Translations under genes and position numbers: made by a program
Origin: a virus
Lineage: Duplodnaviria; Heunggongvirae; Uroviricota; Caudoviricetes
IMG/VR virus record: IMGVR_UViG_2695420809_000014
Span: 1 to 12,227 of that record
DNA length: 12,227 nucleotides
Reading direction: 5' to 3' (one strand)
Part shown: one piece after another, positions 1,448-11,443 of the stretch
How positions within the stretch are numbered: position 1 is the stretch's first letter
Layout of the letters: each line of letters begins with the position of its first letter
The notes under the pieces: model-generated
What the model was told of the DNA's origin: nothing
Seen by the model: the letters and a program-made list of their open reading frames with translations, nothing else
Database searches by the model: none

Positions 1448-1576
1448 TCAGCCGTTAGATTTTGCCGGGCTGGAAAGCGCCTGTTTAAATTCGCTGAAGC
1501 TGAGGGCTTCTTCGCCTTCGGCAAGGCCTTCGAAGTATTCTTCGTAAGCCTTTTCCATGATTGTGTCGAAATCCAT
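1448..1576 (-). CDS. small acidic protein, 42 aa (net charge about -7)
   Basis: ATG at 1576 preceded by AGGTGG with a 5-nt spacer; start lies 1 nt after the TGA of the upstream gene (translational coupling); not in the supplied ORF track because it is under 60 aa. Confidence 0.45.
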   Translation of the reverse strand: MDFDTIMEKAYEEYFEGLAEGEEALSFSEFKQALSSPAKSNG

Positions 1577-1577
1577 A

Positions 1578-1733
1578 TCACCCACCTGAATCTCTTTCCA
1601 GCCAGCGACGCGCTCCAGATTCGGTTTTAAACGTTTTGCTTTTGGTATACGTCATTGCGGTGAACGTGCCGTCCTGGTTTGGAAACACGCCGTACACCAG
1701 AGATTCGTTGTTGCCAAGATCGATAGTATCCAT
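1578..1733 (-). CDS. hypothetical early-left protein, 51 aa (alternative start at 1814 gives 78 aa)
   Basis: In-frame ATG at 1733 with GAGG 5 nt upstream; first gene downstream of the palindromic operator pair at 1919-1957; size and position resemble the small ydaF/ydaG-type genes of Rac-like prophages (recollection, not verified). Confidence 0.5.
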   Translation of the reverse strand: MDTIDLGNNESLVYGVFPNQDGTFTAMTYTKSKTFKTESGARRWLERDSGG

Positions 1734-1918
1734 GCTGACCTCATTCCCCCTTAACGCCGGGGTAGCGGAACAAAAACCTGCTGCATAGTTATTAAAGTTG
1801 AACCCTGCCGTCATGTTCTTACGCCTCGGGCTGGCTACTTAACCCCTGACCACTGCCGGGTAACTCGAAGTATTTCCCTGCGTTCTGTGGGGCGGGGTGG
1901 GTTGGTATGAAAAGAAGG

Positions 1919-1957
1919 ATACCCATGGGTATTTAAAAAGTAAATACCCATGGGTAA
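1919..1957. promoter_or_regulatory. OL-like operator pair: two 14-bp palindromes ATACCCATGGGTAT (1919-1932) and ATACCCATGGGTAA (1944-1957)
   Basis: Perfect and near-perfect palindromes 25 bp centre to centre, just downstream of the repressor gene stop and upstream of the leftward small-gene operon; same WTACC-N4-GGTAW pattern as the three sites in the repressor/cro-like intergenic region. Confidence 0.5.
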
Positions 1958-1998
1958 CTTTTTGCGGTGTCTTAACTGGTGACTAGTTGTTTGGTGAG

Positions 1999-2418
1999 CT
2001 ATGATGCGTTTTGTGCTTTCTTTTTACGGATTTCTTCGTAGATCATATTGTAATACTGTTTTTTCTCTTCAAGAGTTTTTAATAAGTTATCCGCTTCACT
2101 TTCTGGCAGTTCGTCTAAGAGATCTAAAAAAATACGTTGTCGTGGCGTTAGAACCCTTGTTTCATAACTGGAGGCTGTGTTCGTTGATGATGAAACGATA
2201 CCATCCATCCATCCCCGGGGTAACCCAAAGGACTCTTCGATAATCTCCACCATATCATCAGCGATCCGTTTTTTTCCCTTTTTCCCCTCTGGGTACAACA
2301 TTCTTGATACATAAGAAGGCTCGCGCCCGATCTTTCTGGCCACGTTAACCGCTTTACCATCGCATTTCTCATCACGAATTTTGATGAGTTGCTGTCGTCT
2401 AAATTCATATTTGTCCAT
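1999..2418 (-). CDS. phage repressor, short HTH type (RacR-like, 139 aa)
   Basis: N-terminal HTH-like segment (KAVNVARKIGREPSYVSRML); divergent from a Cro-like gene; no SD before the ATG and a TATTAT -10 hexamer 6 nt upstream, consistent with a leaderless maintenance transcript as for lambda cI. Confidence 0.8.
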   Translation of the reverse strand: MDKYEFRRQQLIKIRDEKCDGKAVNVARKIGREPSYVSRMLYPEGKKGKKRIADDMVEIIEESFGLPRGWMDGIVSSSTNTASSYETRVLTPRQRIFLDLLDELPESEADNLLKTLEEKKQYYNMIYEEIRKKKAQNAS

Positions 2419-2437
2419 AGGTAAATAATAGATGCGA

Positions 2438-2493
2438 TTACCGCAAGGTAAACAACCTGTGGGTATTGACTTTTGTTTACCTGTGGGTATTCT
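2438..2493. promoter_or_regulatory. OR-like region: three WTACC-N4-GGTAW sites (2438-2451, 2453-2466, 2477-2490) overlapping divergent promoters
   Basis: TTACCGCAAGGTAA, CAACCTGTGGGTAT and TTACCTGTGGGTAT; rightward promoter candidate TTGACT (2466-2471), 16-bp spacer, TATTCT (2488-2493); leftward -10 TATTAT (complement of 2425-2430). Confidence 0.55.
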
Positions 2494-2518: not shown

Positions 2519-2800
2519 ATGGAAGAATTAAGAATATTTCTCAATTCTCTTTCGTCAGATGAACAGCGTATGTTTGCATGCGAGTGTGGTACCAGCATCG
2601 GTTATCTAAGAAAGGCATTGAGTAAAGGTCAAGTGTTAGGGGCATCGTTATGTGTCCTTATTGAGCGAGCCAGTAATGGTGAAGTTACACGTCAGCAACT
2701 AAGGCCTTTTGATTGGATGAATATTTGGCCCGAGCTGGAAGATACCAAAACGTTAACACAACCACTTTCTAGGAGCTTGATTCATGAAAATCAAGCATGA
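2519..2800 (+). CDS. Cro-like HTH regulator, YdaS family-like (93 aa)
   Basis: ATG 2519 with AAGGAG and 5-nt spacer; C-terminal IERASNGEVTRQQLRPFDW resembles the YdaS/Cro-type motif; divergent from the repressor. Confidence 0.75.
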   Translation: MEELRIFLNSLSSDEQRMFACECGTSIGYLRKALSKGQVLGASLCVLIERASNGEVTRQQLRPFDWMNIWPELEDTKTLTQPLSRSLIHENQA

Positions 2801-3209
2801 ACACATCCGCATGGCGATGAATGCCTGGGCTCATTCGGACGGTGAAAAAGTTCCGGCAGCTGAAATAACCCAGTCTTATTTTGAGTTGGGTATGACGTTT
2901 CCTGAATTGTACGACGACAGCCATCCGGAAGCCCTGTCTCGTAATACCCAGAAAATTTTCCGCTGGGTAGAAAAAAACACCCCTGATGCGGTTAAAAAAA
3001 TTCAGGCGTTGTTACCGGCGATCGAAAAAGCAATGCCGCCTCCGCTGGTGGCCCGAATGCGCAGCCACAGTTCGGAATATCACCGGGAGCTTGTCGAGCG
3101 ACGGGAGCGCCTGGTGAAAGATATCGATGAGTTTGTTGCGGCAGCGATCGTGTTGTTCGATCAGATGAATCGTGGTGGTCCGGCGGGAAATGCCGTGGTG
3201 GCGCATTGA
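2784..3209 (+). CDS. YdaT-like protein (141 aa), CII-type regulator/toxin family
   Basis: Begins MKIKHEHI, which I recall as the YdaT family N-terminus; AGGAG upstream; overlaps the preceding gene by 17 bp. Confidence 0.7.
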   Translation: MKIKHEHIRMAMNAWAHSDGEKVPAAEITQSYFELGMTFPELYDDSHPEALSRNTQKIFRWVEKNTPDAVKKIQALLPAIEKAMPPPLVARMRSHSSEYHRELVERRERLVKDIDEFVAAAIVLFDQMNRGGPAGNAVVAH

Positions 3210-3229
3210 TAACGTGTTCTGGGGGGGGG

Positions 3230-4195
3230 ATGAAGCTCCTTTTTGCTGAACGTCCGCTGGTTATAAACACGCAGCTGGCGATGAAAATTGGTCTGAACGA
3301 AGCCATCGTGTTGCAGCAGTTGCATTACTGGTTGAGAGATACCGGTTCCGGCATGGAATGTGATGGTGTTCGCTGGATTTATAACACAACAGAACAATGG
3401 CTGGAGCAGTTCCCGTTCTGGTCAGAGTCAACGTTAAAACGCGCATTTGCAAGTCTGAAAACGCTGGGGCTTTTACGTTGCGAAAAGCTCAATAAATCAA
3501 AGCGTGATATGACTAATTTTTACACGATTAATTACGAGAGCGAGCTTTTAGATGGTGGCAAAGTGAGCGAATCCATCAGATCAAAATGCGCTGCTCCATC
3601 AGGTCAAAATGACACGATGGAAGAGGCCAAAATGGCACGTTCCATTGGTTCAAAACGACTCAATGTCATCGGGTCAAAATGGCCTGATGATCTTACAGAG
3701 AATACAACAGAGATTACTACAGAGAATAAAAACACTTCTCGTCCGGAAGCTTCGCAACCGGACCCGCAGACGGTTGAACAGGATTTTTTAACCCGACACC
3801 CTGACGCGGTTGTGTTCAGTGCAAAAAAACGCCAGTGGGGCAACCAGGAGGATTTGGCGTGTGCGCAGTGGATCTGGGGGCGAATCGTGAGTCTTTACGA
3901 GCAGGCCGCCAGCGATGATGGCGAGATTTCGCGACCGAAAGAACCCAACTGGACCGCATGGGCCAACGACGTGCGCACAATGCGGATGCTGGATGGCAGA
4001 ACTCACAGACAAATTTGTGAAATGTTTGGTCGGGTGCAGCGGGATCCATTCTGGGTAAAAAATATCATGAGTCCGTCAAAGCTTCGCGAAAAATGGGATG
4101 AACTGGTTATCCGCCTGGGGCGTTCGTCTGTACAGCGTTGTGTGAATCATATTTCTGAGCCGGATACCGAAATTCCGCCGGGGTTCAGGGGGTAA
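3230..4195 (+). CDS. replication initiation protein, O-like replisome organiser (YdaU position)
   Basis: ATG 3230 directly abuts a G9 tract (3221-3229); N-terminal winged-helix-like region; five about 23-bp-spaced iterons inside the coding sequence; followed by a DnaC-like gene. An in-frame TTG at 3206 is a less likely alternative start. Confidence 0.8.
   Translation: MKLLFAERPLVINTQLAMKIGLNEAIVLQQLHYWLRDTGSGMECDGVRWIYNTTEQWLEQFPFWSESTLKRAFASLKTLGLLRCEKLNKSKRDMTNFYTINYESELLDGGKVSESIRSKCAAPSGQNDTMEEAKMARSIGSKRLNVIGSKWPDDLTENTTEITTENKNTSRPEASQPDPQTVEQDFLTRHPDAVVFSAKKRQWGNQEDLACAQWIWGRIVSLYEQAASDDGEISRPKEPNWTAWANDVRTMRMLDGRTHRQICEMFGRVQRDPFWVKNIMSPSKLREKWDELVIRLGRSSVQRCVNHISEPDTEIPPGFRG
3574..3730. 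repeat. origin-like iteron array (5 copies, core TCAAAATG, about 23-bp period) plus AT-rich tract with three tandem 12-mers beginning ACAGAGA
   Basis: Iteron cores near 3581, 3604, 3628, 3651, 3674; AT-rich 12-mers at 3695-3730; located inside the O-like gene as in ori-lambda. Confidence 0.6.
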
Positions 4196-4201
4196 CGGGC
4201 C

Positions 4202-4948
4202 ATGAAAAATATCGCGACAGGTGGTGTTCTTGAGCGTATCCGTAAGCTGACCCCGCAGCATGTAATCGCGCCGTACCGGACAGTGGACGAGTGGCGCGAG
4301 TGGCAACTGGCAGAAGGGCGAAAACGTAGCGAGGAGATCAACCGCCAGAATCGCCAGTTGCGGGTGGAAAAAATCCTGAATCGTTCGGGCATCCAGCCTC
4401 TGCACAGCAAATGCTCGTTTGCGAATTATCAGGTGCAGAACGACGGGCAAAAACACGCGCTGAGCCAGGCAAAATCCATCGCTGACGAACTGATGACCGG
4501 GTGCACGAATTTTGTGTTCAGCGGTAAGCCGGGTACCGGAAAGAACCACCTTGCAGCCGCCATTGGCAATCATCTTCTGGCGAAAGGTCGCAGCGTGATT
4601 GTGATAACGGTGGCTGATGTGATGCTGGCGTTACACAACAGCTACGACAACAAAAACTCAGGCGAAAAATTTTTACAGGGGTTGTGTGATGTTGACCTGC
4701 TTGTCCTGGATGAAATCGGAATGCAGCGGGATACGCGCAACGAGCAGGTCACACTGAACCAGATAGTCGACCGCAGAACGGCTTCGATGCGTAGTGTCGG
4801 AATGCTGACGAACCTGAACCACGTAGCGATGAGTACGCTTCTTGGCGAGCGTGTGATGGACCGCATGGTCATGAACGGTGGTCGCTGGGTGAATTTTAAC
4901 TGGGAGAGCTGGCGTTCGAATGTCAGACACCTGAGGGTTGTGAAGTAA
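4202..4948 (+). CDS. DnaC-like helicase loader (IstB-type AAA+ ATPase; YdaV position)
   Basis: Walker A GKPGTGKNHLAAA and Walker B DLLVLDEIG; start 7 nt after the stop of the O-like gene. Confidence 0.9.
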   Translation: MKNIATGGVLERIRKLTPQHVIAPYRTVDEWREWQLAEGRKRSEEINRQNRQLRVEKILNRSGIQPLHSKCSFANYQVQNDGQKHALSQAKSIADELMTGCTNFVFSGKPGTGKNHLAAAIGNHLLAKGRSVIVITVADVMLALHNSYDNKNSGEKFLQGLCDVDLLVLDEIGMQRDTRNEQVTLNQIVDRRTASMRSVGMLTNLNHVAMSTLLGERVMDRMVMNGGRWVNFNWESWRSNVRHLRVVK

Positions 4949-7066: not shown

Positions 7067-7277
7067 AAACGGTTTGCGGGGAAATCTTAGTTAAGTAGAA
7101 TGACTGCGGGTGCTTGAGGCTATCTGTCTCAGGCATGAACACCAAAAGGCAGATAGAGAAAAGCCCCAGTTAACATTACGCGTCCTGCACGACGCTTAAC
7201 ATTAATCTGAGGCCCAATCTATGTCTCACAAATGTAGGTTAGCCTCTTACGTGCCGAAAGGCAAGGAGAAGCAGGCT

Positions 7278-7433
7278 ATGAAGCAGCAAAAGGCGATGTT
7301 AATCGCCCTGATCGTCATCTGTTTAACCGTCATAGTGACGGCACTGGTAACGAGGAAAGACCTCTGCGAGGTACGAATCCGAACCGGCCAGACGGAGGTC
7401 GCTGTCTTCACAGCTTACGAACCTGAGGAGTAA
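7278..7433 (+). CDS. hokD: Hok/Gef-family type I toxin (51 aa)
   Basis: Translation MKQQKAMLIALIVICLTVIVTALVTRKDLCEVRIRTGQTEVAVFTAYEPEE matches my recollection of E. coli HokD/RelF; AAGGAG upstream; an in-frame ATG at 7221 would give a 70-aa extended form. Paralogue assignment is uncertain because no relBE is upstream. Confidence 0.85.
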   Translation: MKQQKAMLIALIVICLTVIVTALVTRKDLCEVRIRTGQTEVAVFTAYEPEE

Positions 7434-7880: not shown

Positions 7881-8930
7881 GTGCGGGTATTACTTCGACC
7901 TGTTCTGGTACCGGAACTCGGGCTGGTGATCGTTAAGCCGGGCCGTGAATCCATGCCGGTATTCCACAATACCCGGGTACTGGTGGAGCCGGAACCGAAA
8001 AGCATGCGTAATCTGCCGTCCGGGGTTGTTCCTGCCGTTCACCAGCCGCTAGTGGAAGACAAAACATTGCTGCCGTTTTTCAGTAACGCACGGGTGATTC
8101 GTGCTGCTGGTGGTGCTGGTGCATTGTCTGACTGGCTGTTGCGCCATATTAAATCCTGCCAGTGGCCACACGGCGATTATCATCACAGCGAAACCGTCAT
8201 TCACCGTTATGGTACCGGCGCAATGGTGTTGTGCTGGCACTGCGACAACCAGCTGCGTGACCAGACATCCGAATCACTCGAGCAACTTGCTCATCAAAAC
8301 CTGTCAGCATGGATGATTGACGTCATCGGTCACGCAATAAGCGGTACGCAGGAGCGTGAATTATCTCTGGCTGAATTATCCTGGTGGGCGGTCTGCAATC
8401 AGGTGGCGGACGCGCTTCCGGAGGCAGTATTACGTCGTTCTCTGGGGTTACGTGCGGAAAAAATCCGCCCCTTGTACCGCGAAAGCGACATCGTACCGGG
8501 AGAGCAGACCGCCATCAGCATACTGAAACAGCGCACAAAAAATCTTGCGCCGCTGCCTCACGCCCACCAGCAACAGAACCCACCACAGGAAAAGACGGTG
8601 GTCAGCATTGCCGTTGATCCTGAGCCTCCGGAATCTTTCATGAAACGACCTAAACGTCGCCGCTGGGTTAACGAGAAATACACACGCTGGGTGAAGACAC
8701 AGCCGTGTGCGTGTTGTGGTAAGCCAGCCGACGATCCCCATCACCTGATTGGTCATGGTCAGGGCGGAATGGGGACAAAATCTCACGATATTTTCACGCT
8801 ACCGCTGTGTCGGGAGCATCACAACGAGCTTCATGCGGATCCGCTGGCGTTCGAAGAAAAGCATGGTTCTCAGGTTGATTTAATTTTTCGTTTTCTTGAT
8901 CACGCCTTTGCAACTGGCGTGCTTGGGTAA
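7881..8930 (+). CDS. DUF968-like protein (YdfU-like, 349 aa), C-terminal Cys/His HNH-like motif
   Basis: GTG 7881 with GGAGG upstream; C-terminal CACCG...HHLIGHG...CREHHNELH cluster. Confidence 0.75.
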   Translation: MRVLLRPVLVPELGLVIVKPGRESMPVFHNTRVLVEPEPKSMRNLPSGVVPAVHQPLVEDKTLLPFFSNARVIRAAGGAGALSDWLLRHIKSCQWPHGDYHHSETVIHRYGTGAMVLCWHCDNQLRDQTSESLEQLAHQNLSAWMIDVIGHAISGTQERELSLAELSWWAVCNQVADALPEAVLRRSLGLRAEKIRPLYRESDIVPGEQTAISILKQRTKNLAPLPHAHQQQNPPQEKTVVSIAVDPEPPESFMKRPKRRRWVNEKYTRWVKTQPCACCGKPADDPHHLIGHGQGGMGTKSHDIFTLPLCREHHNELHADPLAFEEKHGSQVDLIFRFLDHAFATGVLG

Positions 8931-8942
8931 AAGAGGTGACTG

Positions 8943-9299
8943 ATGCTCATAGATTTGGTTTTACCTTACCCGCCGACGGTGAACACTTACTGGCGACGCC
9001 GTGGCAGCACATATTTTATCTCGGAGGAGGGAAAGCGTTATCGCCGGGCTGTGGCGTTTATTGTTCGCCAGCAGCGGCTGAAATTAAGCCTGTCCGGAAG
9101 GCTGGCGATAAAGGTGATTGCAGAGCCACCGGATAAGCGTCGTCGCGACCTGGACAACATTCTGAAAGCACCGCTGGATGCGCTGACGCATGCGGGAGTG
9201 TTAATGGACGATGAGCAGTTTGATGAAATCAATATCGTTCGTGGTCAGCCAGTATCTGGTGGACGTCTGGGGGTGAAGATTTACCCCATAATGCATTAA
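8943..9299 (+). CDS. rusA: RusA-family Holliday junction resolvase
   Basis: Conserved PDKRRRDLDN, DALTHAG and GGRL segments; size 118 aa; GAGGTG before ATG 8943. Confidence 0.85.
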   Translation: MLIDLVLPYPPTVNTYWRRRGSTYFISEEGKRYRRAVAFIVRQQRLKLSLSGRLAIKVIAEPPDKRRRDLDNILKAPLDALTHAGVLMDDEQFDEINIVRGQPVSGGRLGVKIYPIMH

Positions 9300-9313: not shown

Positions 9314-10135
9314 ATGAAACTGGAAGATTTACCGAAATACTACTCCCCAAAATCCCCTGGCCTGACCGATGCATCGGCCTCAACGTCAAAAGATGCGCTG
9401 AGTATCACTGATGTGATGGCCGCGCAGGGCATGACACAGAATCGGGCTGAGATGGGTTTTTCTGCGTTCCTGGGGAAAATGGGCATCAGTATGAATGACA
9501 GGGCGCGGGCAACAGAATTACTGGCAGATTATGCACTCAGTCGGTGCGATCGTGTGGCGGCGTTGAGAAAACTTCCGGCAGAAATAAAACCGGTAGTGAT
9601 GCGCATTATGGCTTCGTACGCTTTTGAGGATTATGCCCGCAGCGCAGCGAGTAAAAAGCAGTGCCCTTGTTGCTATGGGGAAAAATTTATTGAAAGCATA
9701 GTTTTTACAAACAAGGTCCAGTATCCGGATGGTAAGCCGCCGGTATGGGCAAAGTGTACGAAAGGTGTGTATCCGTCTTACTGGGAAGAATGGAAAAAAG
9801 TCAGGGAGGTGGTAAAAGTTGCCTGTCCGGAGTGTGGCGGAAAGGGTGAGGTTTCCACCGCCTGTAAGGATTGCCGTGGGCGTGGTGTCGCCATTCATCG
9901 TGAAGAGTCGGTAAAACGTGGTATGCCTGTTATCAGAGACTGCCAGCGTTGTGGTGGTCGTGGCTATGAAAGACTACCATCAACGGAGGCATTTAATGCT
10001 ATATGCGAGGTGACAAACCAGATAACACGCGCGTCATGGGAAAAAACAGTTAAGAAATTTTATGATGCGCTGGTGACCCGGTTTGATATTGAAGAAGCAT
10101 GGGCTGAGCGGCAGTTAAAAAAGGTAACTAGGTAA
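9314..10135 (+). CDS. late-gene antiterminator Q-like protein with four CxxCxGxG zinc-finger repeats
   Basis: Sits immediately upstream of a pR'-like promoter and tR'-like terminator; CPCCYGEKF, CPECGGKGE, CKDCRGRGV, CQRCGGRGY motifs; resembles Qin-type Q homologues from memory. Confidence 0.6.
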   Translation: MKLEDLPKYYSPKSPGLTDASASTSKDALSITDVMAAQGMTQNRAEMGFSAFLGKMGISMNDRARATELLADYALSRCDRVAALRKLPAEIKPVVMRIMASYAFEDYARSAASKKQCPCCYGEKFIESIVFTNKVQYPDGKPPVWAKCTKGVYPSYWEEWKKVREVVKVACPECGGKGEVSTACKDCRGRGVAIHREESVKRGMPVIRDCQRCGGRGYERLPSTEAFNAICEVTNQITRASWEKTVKKFYDALVTRFDIEEAWAERQLKKVTR

Positions 10136-10278: not shown

Positions 10279-10354
10279 GGCCCTTTAGCTCAGTGGTGAG
10301 AGCGAGCGACTCATAATCGCCAGGTCGCTGGTTCAAATCCAGCAAGGGCCACCA
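10279..10354 (+). tRNA. tRNA with CAT anticodon, closest to the lysidine-type tRNA-Ile2 (ileZ/ileX-like); tRNA-Met not excluded
   Basis: 7-bp acceptor stem GGCCCTT/AAGGGCC, D-arm GCTCAGTGGTGAGAGC, anticodon loop CTCATAA, T-arm GGTTCAAATCC, encoded CCA. Confidence 0.8.
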
Positions 10355-10455
10355 TCACAAACCGCCATTAGCTTATCAGGAAGAGCAGACGACACGATAA
10401 CAGGGTTGTTGGTGCGGGGGGCGGGTCCCCGATGGCGGTCCATTATCGGTATTCA

Positions 10456-10532
10456 GCGTTGTTAGCTCAGCCGGACAGAGCAATTGCCTTCTAAGCAATC
10501 GGTCACTGGTTCGAATCCAGTACAGCGCGCCA
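10456..10532 (+). tRNA. tRNA-Arg (TCT anticodon, argU/argN-like)
   Basis: Acceptor stem GCGTTGT/ACAGCGC, anticodon loop CTTCTAA, T-arm GGTTCGAATCC, encoded CCA; close to E. coli argU by eye. Confidence 0.85.
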
Positions 10533-11163: not shown

Positions 11164-11389
11164 CCGGGTATCAGTTAGCGGGAGAAATTTTTAAATACTT
11201 CACAATTCAGGCGGTTGACTGTTGTCTGGTTTGCGGGGAGTTTGTTAAAAGAAACTGGCATGGTGAATCCCCCTGTGCGGAGGGGCAATCAGCGAGTAGG
11301 TATATGGGATAATCGCGGATTCAGGTGCTGGTACTGAATTCACCGGGAGGCACCCGGCACCATGCAATGGCACATAGCGCCACTCTCCA

Positions 11390-11416
11390 GCCCCTCTCCG
11401 GAGGGGCTGTTTATAT
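11390..11416 (+). terminator. candidate intrinsic terminator
   Basis: GCCCCTC-TCCG-GAGGGGC stem-loop followed by a T-rich tract (TGTTTATATTGATTTT). Confidence 0.4.
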
Positions 11417-11443
11417 TGATTTTGTCAGATGTGAGTAAACTCC

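Follow-up and report, generated by a model that had tools for sequence, protein, structure and literature searches.

The locus described here raises the question of whether a short sequence motif that recurs on both sides of a prophage repressor gene is the operator of an immunity switch. The DNA under study is a 12,227-bp stretch of the virus record IMGVR_UViG_2695420809_000014, referred to in full as the window, and it represents the early part of a lambdoid Escherichia coli prophage. A 139-amino-acid repressor is encoded on its minus strand (1999-2418), and a cro-like gene is encoded divergently on the plus strand (2519-2800). Three copies of the motif lie between the two genes and two lie downstream of the repressor gene. 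Judged from the sequence and its conservation, the five sites are very probably the operators of a lambdoid prophage immunity switch, with predicted binding sites in a right operator region (OR) and a left operator region (OL).

The original prediction had described five 14-mers with one shared pattern, WTACC-N4-GGTAW, and reading the sequence at the positions it gave confirmed the coordinates of all five. Written as the degenerate pattern WTACCNNNNGGTAW, the motif has four exact matches in the whole window versus 0.04 expected, and a count of four was reached in 0 of 200 shuffles. The exact matches are confined to two places. Just downstream of the repressor gene lie OL1 (1919-1932, ATACCCATGGGTAT, a perfect palindrome) and OL2 (1944-1957, ATACCCATGGGTAA), 25 bp apart, and in the repressor/cro-like intergenic region lie OR3 (2438-2451, TTACCGCAAGGTAA) and OR1 (2477-2490, TTACCTGTGGGTAT). 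The shared pattern holds for these four sites and fails for the remaining one, OR2 (2453-2466, CAACCTGTGGGTAT), a weak site that is two positions off and lies 24 bp from OR1, measured from centre to centre. The proposed motif search for further copies was run on the window and gave no exact match beyond the four; a position-weight scan of the same 12.2 kb found no further strong site, and a repeat search of the 100-bp intergenic region found no other repeated motif. The left region (1915-1955) is an inverted copy of the region of the rightward promoter (2455-2494).

Three promoter candidates are found at these sites. The rightward promoter (PR; 2466-2493, plus strand) consists of TTGACT (2466-2471), a 16-bp spacer, and TATTCT (2488-2493), with a predicted start near 2500 and a promoter scan score of 9/12. 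It does overlap the two right-hand sites, as had been claimed: the last base of OR2 is the first T of the PR -35, and OR1 overlaps the PR spacer and -10. The promoter for repressor maintenance (PRM; 2425-2452, minus strand) consists of TTTACC (2452-2447), a 16-bp spacer, and TATTAT (2430-2425), also with a scan score of 9/12, and transcription from it is predicted to begin with the A of the repressor start codon ATG (2418). The PRM -35, TTTACC, is the left half of OR3. OR3 overlaps the -35 and the spacer with its centre at -26.5 from the predicted start, and OR2 abuts the -35 with its centre at -41.5. The leftward promoter (PL; 1916-1944, minus strand) was absent from the original prediction and was read directly from the sequence here. 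It consists of TTTACT (1944-1939), a 17-bp spacer, and TATCCT (1921-1916), and its start is predicted at the A in a CAT near 1908. OL2 abuts its -35, and OL1 overlaps its -10. This predicted promoter would drive the early-left operon DUF1391(ydfA)-ydfB-ydfC.

In the window and its relatives, PR and PL have a common design. One operator ends at the -35, where GGTA is followed by TTGAC, TAGAC, or TTTAC; the next operator supplies the first two bases of the -10 (GGTA+tnnT, with the final T invariant), and 6 nucleotides and CAT follow. In the PR of the relatives, TTGA(C/T) is conserved, and so is the -10 overlapping the outer half of OR1. Directly upstream of OL2, the repressor-sense strand has four to six consecutive A in the window (1958-1964) and in most of the related loci; this run could serve PL as an UP-like element or form the A-tract of a bidirectional terminator.

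The start of the repressor gene carries a further feature of the switch. It had been claimed that the repressor ATG follows a promoter hexamer without a ribosome-binding site, and this is borne out: TATTAT lies exactly 6 nucleotides (TTACCT) before the ATG at 2418, and no purine-rich Shine-Dalgarno sequence lies between them. The cro-like gene, unlike the repressor gene, has a Shine-Dalgarno sequence, AAGGAG, at 2508-2513. A -10-like hexamer ends 6-7 nucleotides before the repressor ATG in 24/26 related loci, with the same -35/-10 geometry as PRM. The gap between hexamer and ATG is too short for a ribosome-binding site, and its sequence varies by locus (TTACCT, TAAATC, TAATAA, GTAAAC, and others). 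Conservation of the gap in length and not in sequence is what a start codon at +1 predicts. These data support a leaderless repressor mRNA from PRM, with a predicted start at, or within one base of, its AUG. A precedent is the leaderless repressor PaaR2 of prophage CP-933P, which was determined by 5' RACE as well as N-terminal sequencing (PMC8630535). Between the PRM -10 and the repressor ATG there is also a weak half-site, AGGTAAA (2419-2425, within 2411-2425; a repeat of 2446-2452). Its matrix score is below the shuffle median and it is not kept in relatives; it is probably a chance occurrence.

A second transcript of the repressor gene is suggested by a site on the other side of the cro-like gene. 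The ydaT-like gene (2784-3209, plus strand), which encodes a CII analogue, matches Pfam YdaT_toxin with 37.9 bits versus a cut-off of 21. The sequence TTGATT-N6-AATCAA occurs with zero mismatches at 2777-2794 (TTGATTCATGAAAATCAA), over the ydaT-like start codon and the 3' end of the cro-like gene. This consensus was determined for CP-933P YdaT (PMC9986795). The box at 2777-2794 is probably a CII-analogue binding site at a putative establishment promoter of the PRE type, and it suggests a second, long-leadered establishment transcript of the repressor, as in lambda. With such a transcript possible, a long leader alone would not speak against a leaderless maintenance transcript. The YdaS/YdaT module is recognized in the window by the matches to PHROG 35 and PHROG 163 together with the exact box. 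The cro-like protein has 93 amino acids and a YdaS-type helix-turn-helix; it matches PHROG 35 at E = 5e-23, and its match to Pfam YdaS_toxin has E = 9e-6 and 25.8 bits, below the cut-off of 30.

Strong backing for the operators comes from their conservation. The comparison covers 26 loci from about 15 genera, obtained by scanning one genome per species for conserved peptides, and the counts include the window and phage mEp043. Measured from the repressor ATG, OR1 is found at -71 to -73 in 24/26 loci (-75 in one locus), OR2 at -47/-48 in 20/26 (-49 and -50 in two loci), and OR3 at -32/-33 in 25/26 (-35 in one locus); the three offsets can be summed up as -72, -47, and -32. The OL pair, with its sites 24-26 bp apart, is located 460 to 2,500 nucleotides downstream in 22/26 loci, and OL1 corresponds by position to the promoter-proximal member of that pair. 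Phage mEp043 has three copies of TACC-N4-GGTA between cI and cro and a further two, separated by 25 bp, upstream of N. The same core thus recurs at the same offsets in about 22 genome loci and mEp043, all of which have the N-terminal domain of this repressor, while the intervening sequence has diverged, which backs the predicted assignment to OL and OR.

Within the motif, the information content is 2.0 bits at every TACC and GGTA position. It falls to 0-1 bit at the four central positions, where there is a Y...R bias, and to almost nil in the flanks. The training scan gave 82 exact core sites within the OR and OL search ranges, and the full listing had only one exact core outside them, in locus L026. 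The two most distant loci, with 30-38% identity in the DNA-binding domain, contain no exact site. The defect in OR2 (GGTT on the repressor-sense strand) is itself conserved and recurs in the 20/26 loci that have a site at this position, with relatives reading CAATACC-N4-GGTTATT. Read from the other strand, the CAA of the relatives' OR2 gives the TTG of the PR -35, and replacement of A by T weakens the site in most of them. Among five E. coli copies, TACC and GGTA are free of substitutions, which are confined to the site centres and spacers. The centre changes are CATG to CATA in OL1, where it is the sole variation, TGTG to CAAG in OR2 (with ACC and GGTA kept), and TGTG to TGTA in OR1.

Two side observations were made in the related loci. 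A third element of the form TTACC-N14-GGTAA, for example TTACCTGAAAATTCAAGCAGGTAA, is located about 35 nucleotides upstream of OL2 in loci L002 (3553-3576), L003, L013, L015, L019, and L022. It is absent from the window, its half-sites are one helical turn further apart, and it may be an OL3 with other spacing. In the copy of the O157:H7 strain Z1813 (L001), position 9593, corresponding to 2470 of the window, gives TTGGCT for TTGACT in the PR -35, and the same copy has CATA for CATG in the OL1 centre. The TTGGCT change may be a PR down-mutation in a cryptic prophage.

The repressor combines two modules. The protein matches PHROG 5736, "transcriptional regulator", at E = 4e-70, and its RefSeq name is "hypothetical protein". 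Its N-terminus (residues 1-72) is a predicted helix-turn-helix domain, which is followed by a disordered linker and then by a helical C-terminus of the DicA kind (about 89-138). The first 72 residues show 65-82% identity with the N-termini of many LexA/S24-type Enterobacterales repressors of 220-242 amino acids, and 65% identity with mEp043 cI. The recognition-helix segment EPSYVSRML is identical in mEp043 cI and almost invariant across the family. An AlphaFold model (pLDDT 86.5) has a helical N-domain, a disordered linker at 77-87, and a C-terminal helical hairpin, and its Foldseek matches, of the XRE-type fold, include SPC32H Rep, C.Esp1396I, HigA, and lambda cI (1lli). ADAR Z-alpha matches in the PDB sequence search were weak (E about 0.08) and were taken as chance. 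Some E. coli database proteins of 135-136 amino acids (P0012-P0018) start in an alternative frame with MNLDDSNSSKF... (window 2148-2408, minus strand). They join the repressor frame only after the helix-turn-helix and are frameshifted copies with the DNA-binding domain destroyed.

Taken together, the sites and promoters suggest the following mechanism. Repressor dimers would read the half-sites TTACC and GGTAA, which are one helical turn apart, and the 4-bp centre would be non-contacted. OR1 and OR2, 24 bp apart, would be filled cooperatively and PR would be blocked; OL1 and OL2, 25 bp apart and of the same design, would block PL, so that both early operons would be silenced. Repressor bound at OR2 (-41.5 relative to the PRM start) would be in a position to stimulate PRM, and at a high repressor level OR3 over the PRM -35 would shut PRM. 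The YdaS-type Cro presumably competes for the same sites and flips the switch. In the repressor transcript, the OL1/OL2 pair may in addition form a terminator.

Several points weigh against the assignment of the five sites as repressor operators. In the literature searched, no report of binding, footprinting, or transcription starts was found for this protein or these sites. OR2 is degenerate, with CA in place of WT (CAACC...) and one mismatch in the 12-bp core TACC-N4-GGTA, and 2453-2466 was not recovered from the window by the 14-mer search even with one mismatch allowed. The centres of OR2 and OR3 are only 15 bp apart (about 1.4 turns) and lie on different helix faces, so that alternate pairwise cooperativity in the lambda style cannot simply be assumed. 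PL is weak by consensus (8/12), a score below the threshold of the promoter scan, which therefore did not list it. On the protein side, the repressor has no Pfam helix-turn-helix match at E <= 0.01 and no match to any Pfam family, and the fold matches are modest, with one at E <= 0.001 and whole-query template modelling (TM) scores of about 0.4-0.5. The 26 loci are related by descent, and the locus counts are therefore not independent trials. In most loci, moreover, repressor and Cro travel together, so that a given site may be read by either protein and with differing affinity.

The alternative that survives best concerns the OL pair and is compatible with an operator role. In this alternative, the pair is primarily or additionally an intrinsic terminator of the PRM transcript, placed before the early-left operon of the ydfA-dicB type. 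OL2 and OL1 form a hairpin on the minus strand (1920-1956) with a perfect 16-bp stem, a 5-nucleotide loop, and the tail UCCUUCUUUU, and a scan reports a terminator-like site on both strands at this position. A stable stem-loop and then directly a U-tract, the hallmarks of a rho-independent terminator, can both be read in the sequence there, with an A-tract before the stem and a T-rich tract after it. The 105-nucleotide segment 1895-1999 folds at -26.4 kcal/mol (z = -5.5), and 0/200 shuffles were as stable. The window has no other terminator from the repressor stop (1999) to OL2. In most relatives, by contrast, a distinct GC-rich terminator is located 60-100 nucleotides upstream of OL2, and their OL hairpins reach -6 to -18 kcal/mol versus -24.5 kcal/mol for the OL pair of the window alone. 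However, two adjacent copies of one palindrome pair automatically. The stem base is AU-rich, the tail UCCUUCUUUU is interrupted, and the T-rich stretch is the region from the PL -10 to the PL start, which is kept in relatives that have their own terminator. The O157 copy carries the centre change CATG to CATA, which breaks the stem. A terminator alone also fails to explain the motif at OR, or the conservation of the motif with variable centres. A terminator function of the OL pair is thus possible and rather doubtful; the predicted combination of operator and terminator in this compact version of the locus is plausible, and it is put forward tentatively.

A second alternative keeps the sites as operators and changes the reader: the motif would be read mainly by the YdaS-type Cro, and the 139-amino-acid protein would recognize another sequence. 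Homologous Cro proteins are encoded divergently from the repressor in 19/25 comparison loci, where Cro and motif co-occur, and in CP-933P the footprints of YdaS and of the repressor fall in one and the same region (PMC8630535). Klebsiella loci L006, L008, and L010-L012 speak against it. They encode an S24-type repressor with the same DNA-binding domain and keep OR1, OR3, and the OL pair; they have no OR2, with TTTGCTATATTTT in its place, and no YdaS-type Cro open reading frame. Since the sites are kept there without that Cro, the motif tracks the repressor domain. The 100-bp intergenic region offers no second repeated motif that the repressor could read instead, and wherever the motif is found, the repressor domain has a nearly invariant recognition-helix segment. 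Cro as the main reader is therefore very unlikely. Chance palindromes or non-regulatory repeats, such as recombination junction scars of a mosaic immunity cassette, are scarcely credible: homology borders do lie close to the OL pair (about 1910 for Tritos-like phages and about 1775 for the Qin prophage), but four matches were observed versus 0.04 expected, and the position relative to ATG and promoter hexamers is conserved over about 15 genera while the centres vary freely.

In its C-terminus, the repressor differs from that of lambda. Residues 89-134 are 33% identical to DicA 84-129 over 46 amino acids by BLASTP. The whole protein scores 23.9 bits against the NCBIfam DicA model (NF007257), versus a cut-off of 101, and only residues 86-136 align, to DicA 81-131; full membership of the DicA subfamily is ruled out by this score. 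A Pfam search of the 139-amino-acid protein gave no match to Peptidase_S24 (PF00717), a domain that is carried by 79 of the 120 relatives listed. Without a LexA/S24 autocleavage domain in the repressor, induction cannot follow lambda. Searches of the window and of 18.9 kb of the O157 copy gave neither a LexA box nor an antirepressor gene, and ten further open reading frames contain no antirepressor-like domain. The short DicA-like helical module is found in this E. coli prophage and in Yersinia, Serratia, and Arsenophonus counterparts, and most carriers have S24. We consider it possible, at somewhat less than even chances, that a single cassette of constant make-up (DNA-binding domain, TACC-N4-GGTA operators, and YdaS-type Cro) is in circulation and can carry either of two exchangeable C-terminal modules, with OL doubling as a terminator in the compact form.

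Full-text literature searches with the operator strings and the RefSeq protein accessions returned nothing relevant, and the papers that mention mEp043 do not treat its operators. In the literature searched, the operator specificity and its conservation over about 15 genera are apparently undescribed, and so is the pairing of one DNA-binding domain/operator/Cro cassette with an S24 or a DicA-like C-terminus. If the proposal of two C-terminal modules is true, prophages of the present type would give SOS-proof immunity against mEp043-type phages and would supply dominant non-inducible repressors for any phage of this immunity type residing in the same cell. That one DNA-binding domain can be joined to a cleavable or to a non-cleavable C-terminus bears on differences in prophage inducibility and cross-immunity. 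A testable operator map, with five sites, three promoters, and predicted starts, is gained for an immunity type whose repressor is a "hypothetical protein" in RefSeq. Because the core and the layout are retained from Enterobacterales to Aeromonas and in some Betaproteobacteria, many prophages would be annotated by a single experiment. The general picture of lambdoid switches is unchanged, and the kind of system is textbook.

The distribution of the locus was determined in complete genomes and phage collections. The region 1880-2800 occurs in 824/5,426 complete E. coli genomes (15%), mostly at >= 99% identity, and O157:H7, O145, O111:H8, and O25:H4 strains are included. In a DNA search of the phage collection, no near-identical phage was found for the immunity cassette, and the matches were limited to the flanks (window 1500-1910 and about 2800-3200). 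On the left, the similarity to Tritos-like phages extends to about 1910; on the right, it resumes at about 2800. Homology to Qin starts about 40 nucleotides upstream of ydfA, at the border near 1775, and runs leftwards nearly identical. The matches to the flanks only indicate an exchangeable immunity cassette of roughly 1911-2800, whose left edge coincides with the predicted PL start. By these borders, OL, repressor, OR, and cro appear to be exchanged as one unit.

The genes around the cassette are those of a lambdoid early region. On the left, ydfC-like and DUF1391 (ydfA-like) genes lie on the minus strand (1200-1814). All further features on the right whose strand is given are on the plus strand. 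Replication genes, including a DnaC/IstB-like ATPase, occupy 3206-4948. A hok/sok locus (7108-7433), with sok RNA (Rfam RF01794, 120 bits) and a Hok/Gef-family open reading frame (7221-7433), lies between the replication genes and a block of genes for a DUF968 protein (7881-8930), RusA (8943-9299), and the Q antiterminator (9314-10135). Two tRNA genes, tRNA-Met(CAT) and tRNA-Arg(TCT), are located directly downstream of the Q gene (10279-10532), and a match to the small RNA STnc100 (11229-11418, 132 bits) lies beyond them. The Rfam search found no DicF in the window.

The switch was compared with known systems, beginning with lambda. In lambda, as in the window, divergent repressor and cro genes face each other across a region of roughly 100 bp with three operators. 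OR1 and OR2 are 24 bp apart, the centre of OR2 falls near -42, some 42 bp before the PRM start, and PRM is covered by OR3. Downstream of the repressor gene, a leftward promoter carries a second cluster of operators, and a CII-type site marks the point where cro meets the gene that follows it. The lambda cI mRNA is leaderless, with its start codon at the PRM start, and the repressor mRNA of the window would be likewise by its predicted start. The parallel with lambda drawn by the original prediction therefore stands for the operator and promoter geometry. It does not extend to the number of OL sites, which is two versus three in lambda, to the OR2-OR3 distance, which is 15 bp versus 23, or to the autocleavage domain: the window repressor, unlike that of lambda, has 139 amino acids, a DicA-like helical C-terminus, and no S24 domain. 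The operators are also shorter, 14-16 bp (TTACC-N4-GGTAA) versus 17 bp, and the CII analogue is YdaT. Unlike lambda, the left arm of the window has no N gene, and PL would lead into ydfA-ydfB-ydfC, with dicB in addition in the O157 copy.

The closest characterized system is CP-933P / Sp12 of E. coli O157:H7, in which PaaR2 is the CI, YdaS the Cro, and YdaT the CII analogue (PMC8630535; PMC9986795). Like the window, CP-933P has a short repressor without a peptidase domain and a divergent ydaS-ydaT pair; PaaR2 was compared by its description. The OR sites of CP-933P were footprinted, the footprints of repressor and Cro overlap PR and PRM, and PL is repressed by both PaaR2 and YdaS, with the OL sites predicted (PMC8630535). 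The CP-933P operators differ from those of the window in being 18-bp inverted repeats with the half-site consensus GTTTAGTAA, which indicates a different immunity specificity. In CP-933P, the paaA2-parE2 toxin-antitoxin genes come after PaaR2; the window lacks them.

Three further systems were compared. The DicA/DicC region of Qin in E. coli K-12 has the same gene order, with cro-like gene, repressor, and ydfA(DUF1391)-ydfB-ydfC (plus dicB in the O157 copy), whereas its DNA-binding domain and its operator/promoter DNA are unrelated to those of the window. Rep of the Salmonella phage SPC32H (PDB 5d50, 5d4z, the Rep-Ant complex) is the best structural match of the repressor (Foldseek E = 9e-4), with 22% identity and a TM score of about 0.47, and it was solved with its antirepressor. 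Phage mEp043 cI and the S24-type Enterobacterales repressors share with the window the same operators, offsets, OL spacing, and YdaS-type Cro. The mEp043-type repressors have 220-242 amino acids with Peptidase_S24 (PF00717) and are presumably SOS-cleavable, whereas the window repressor has a helical module of roughly 50 amino acids in its place. In mEp043, unlike in the window, a separate terminator and the N gene follow OL.

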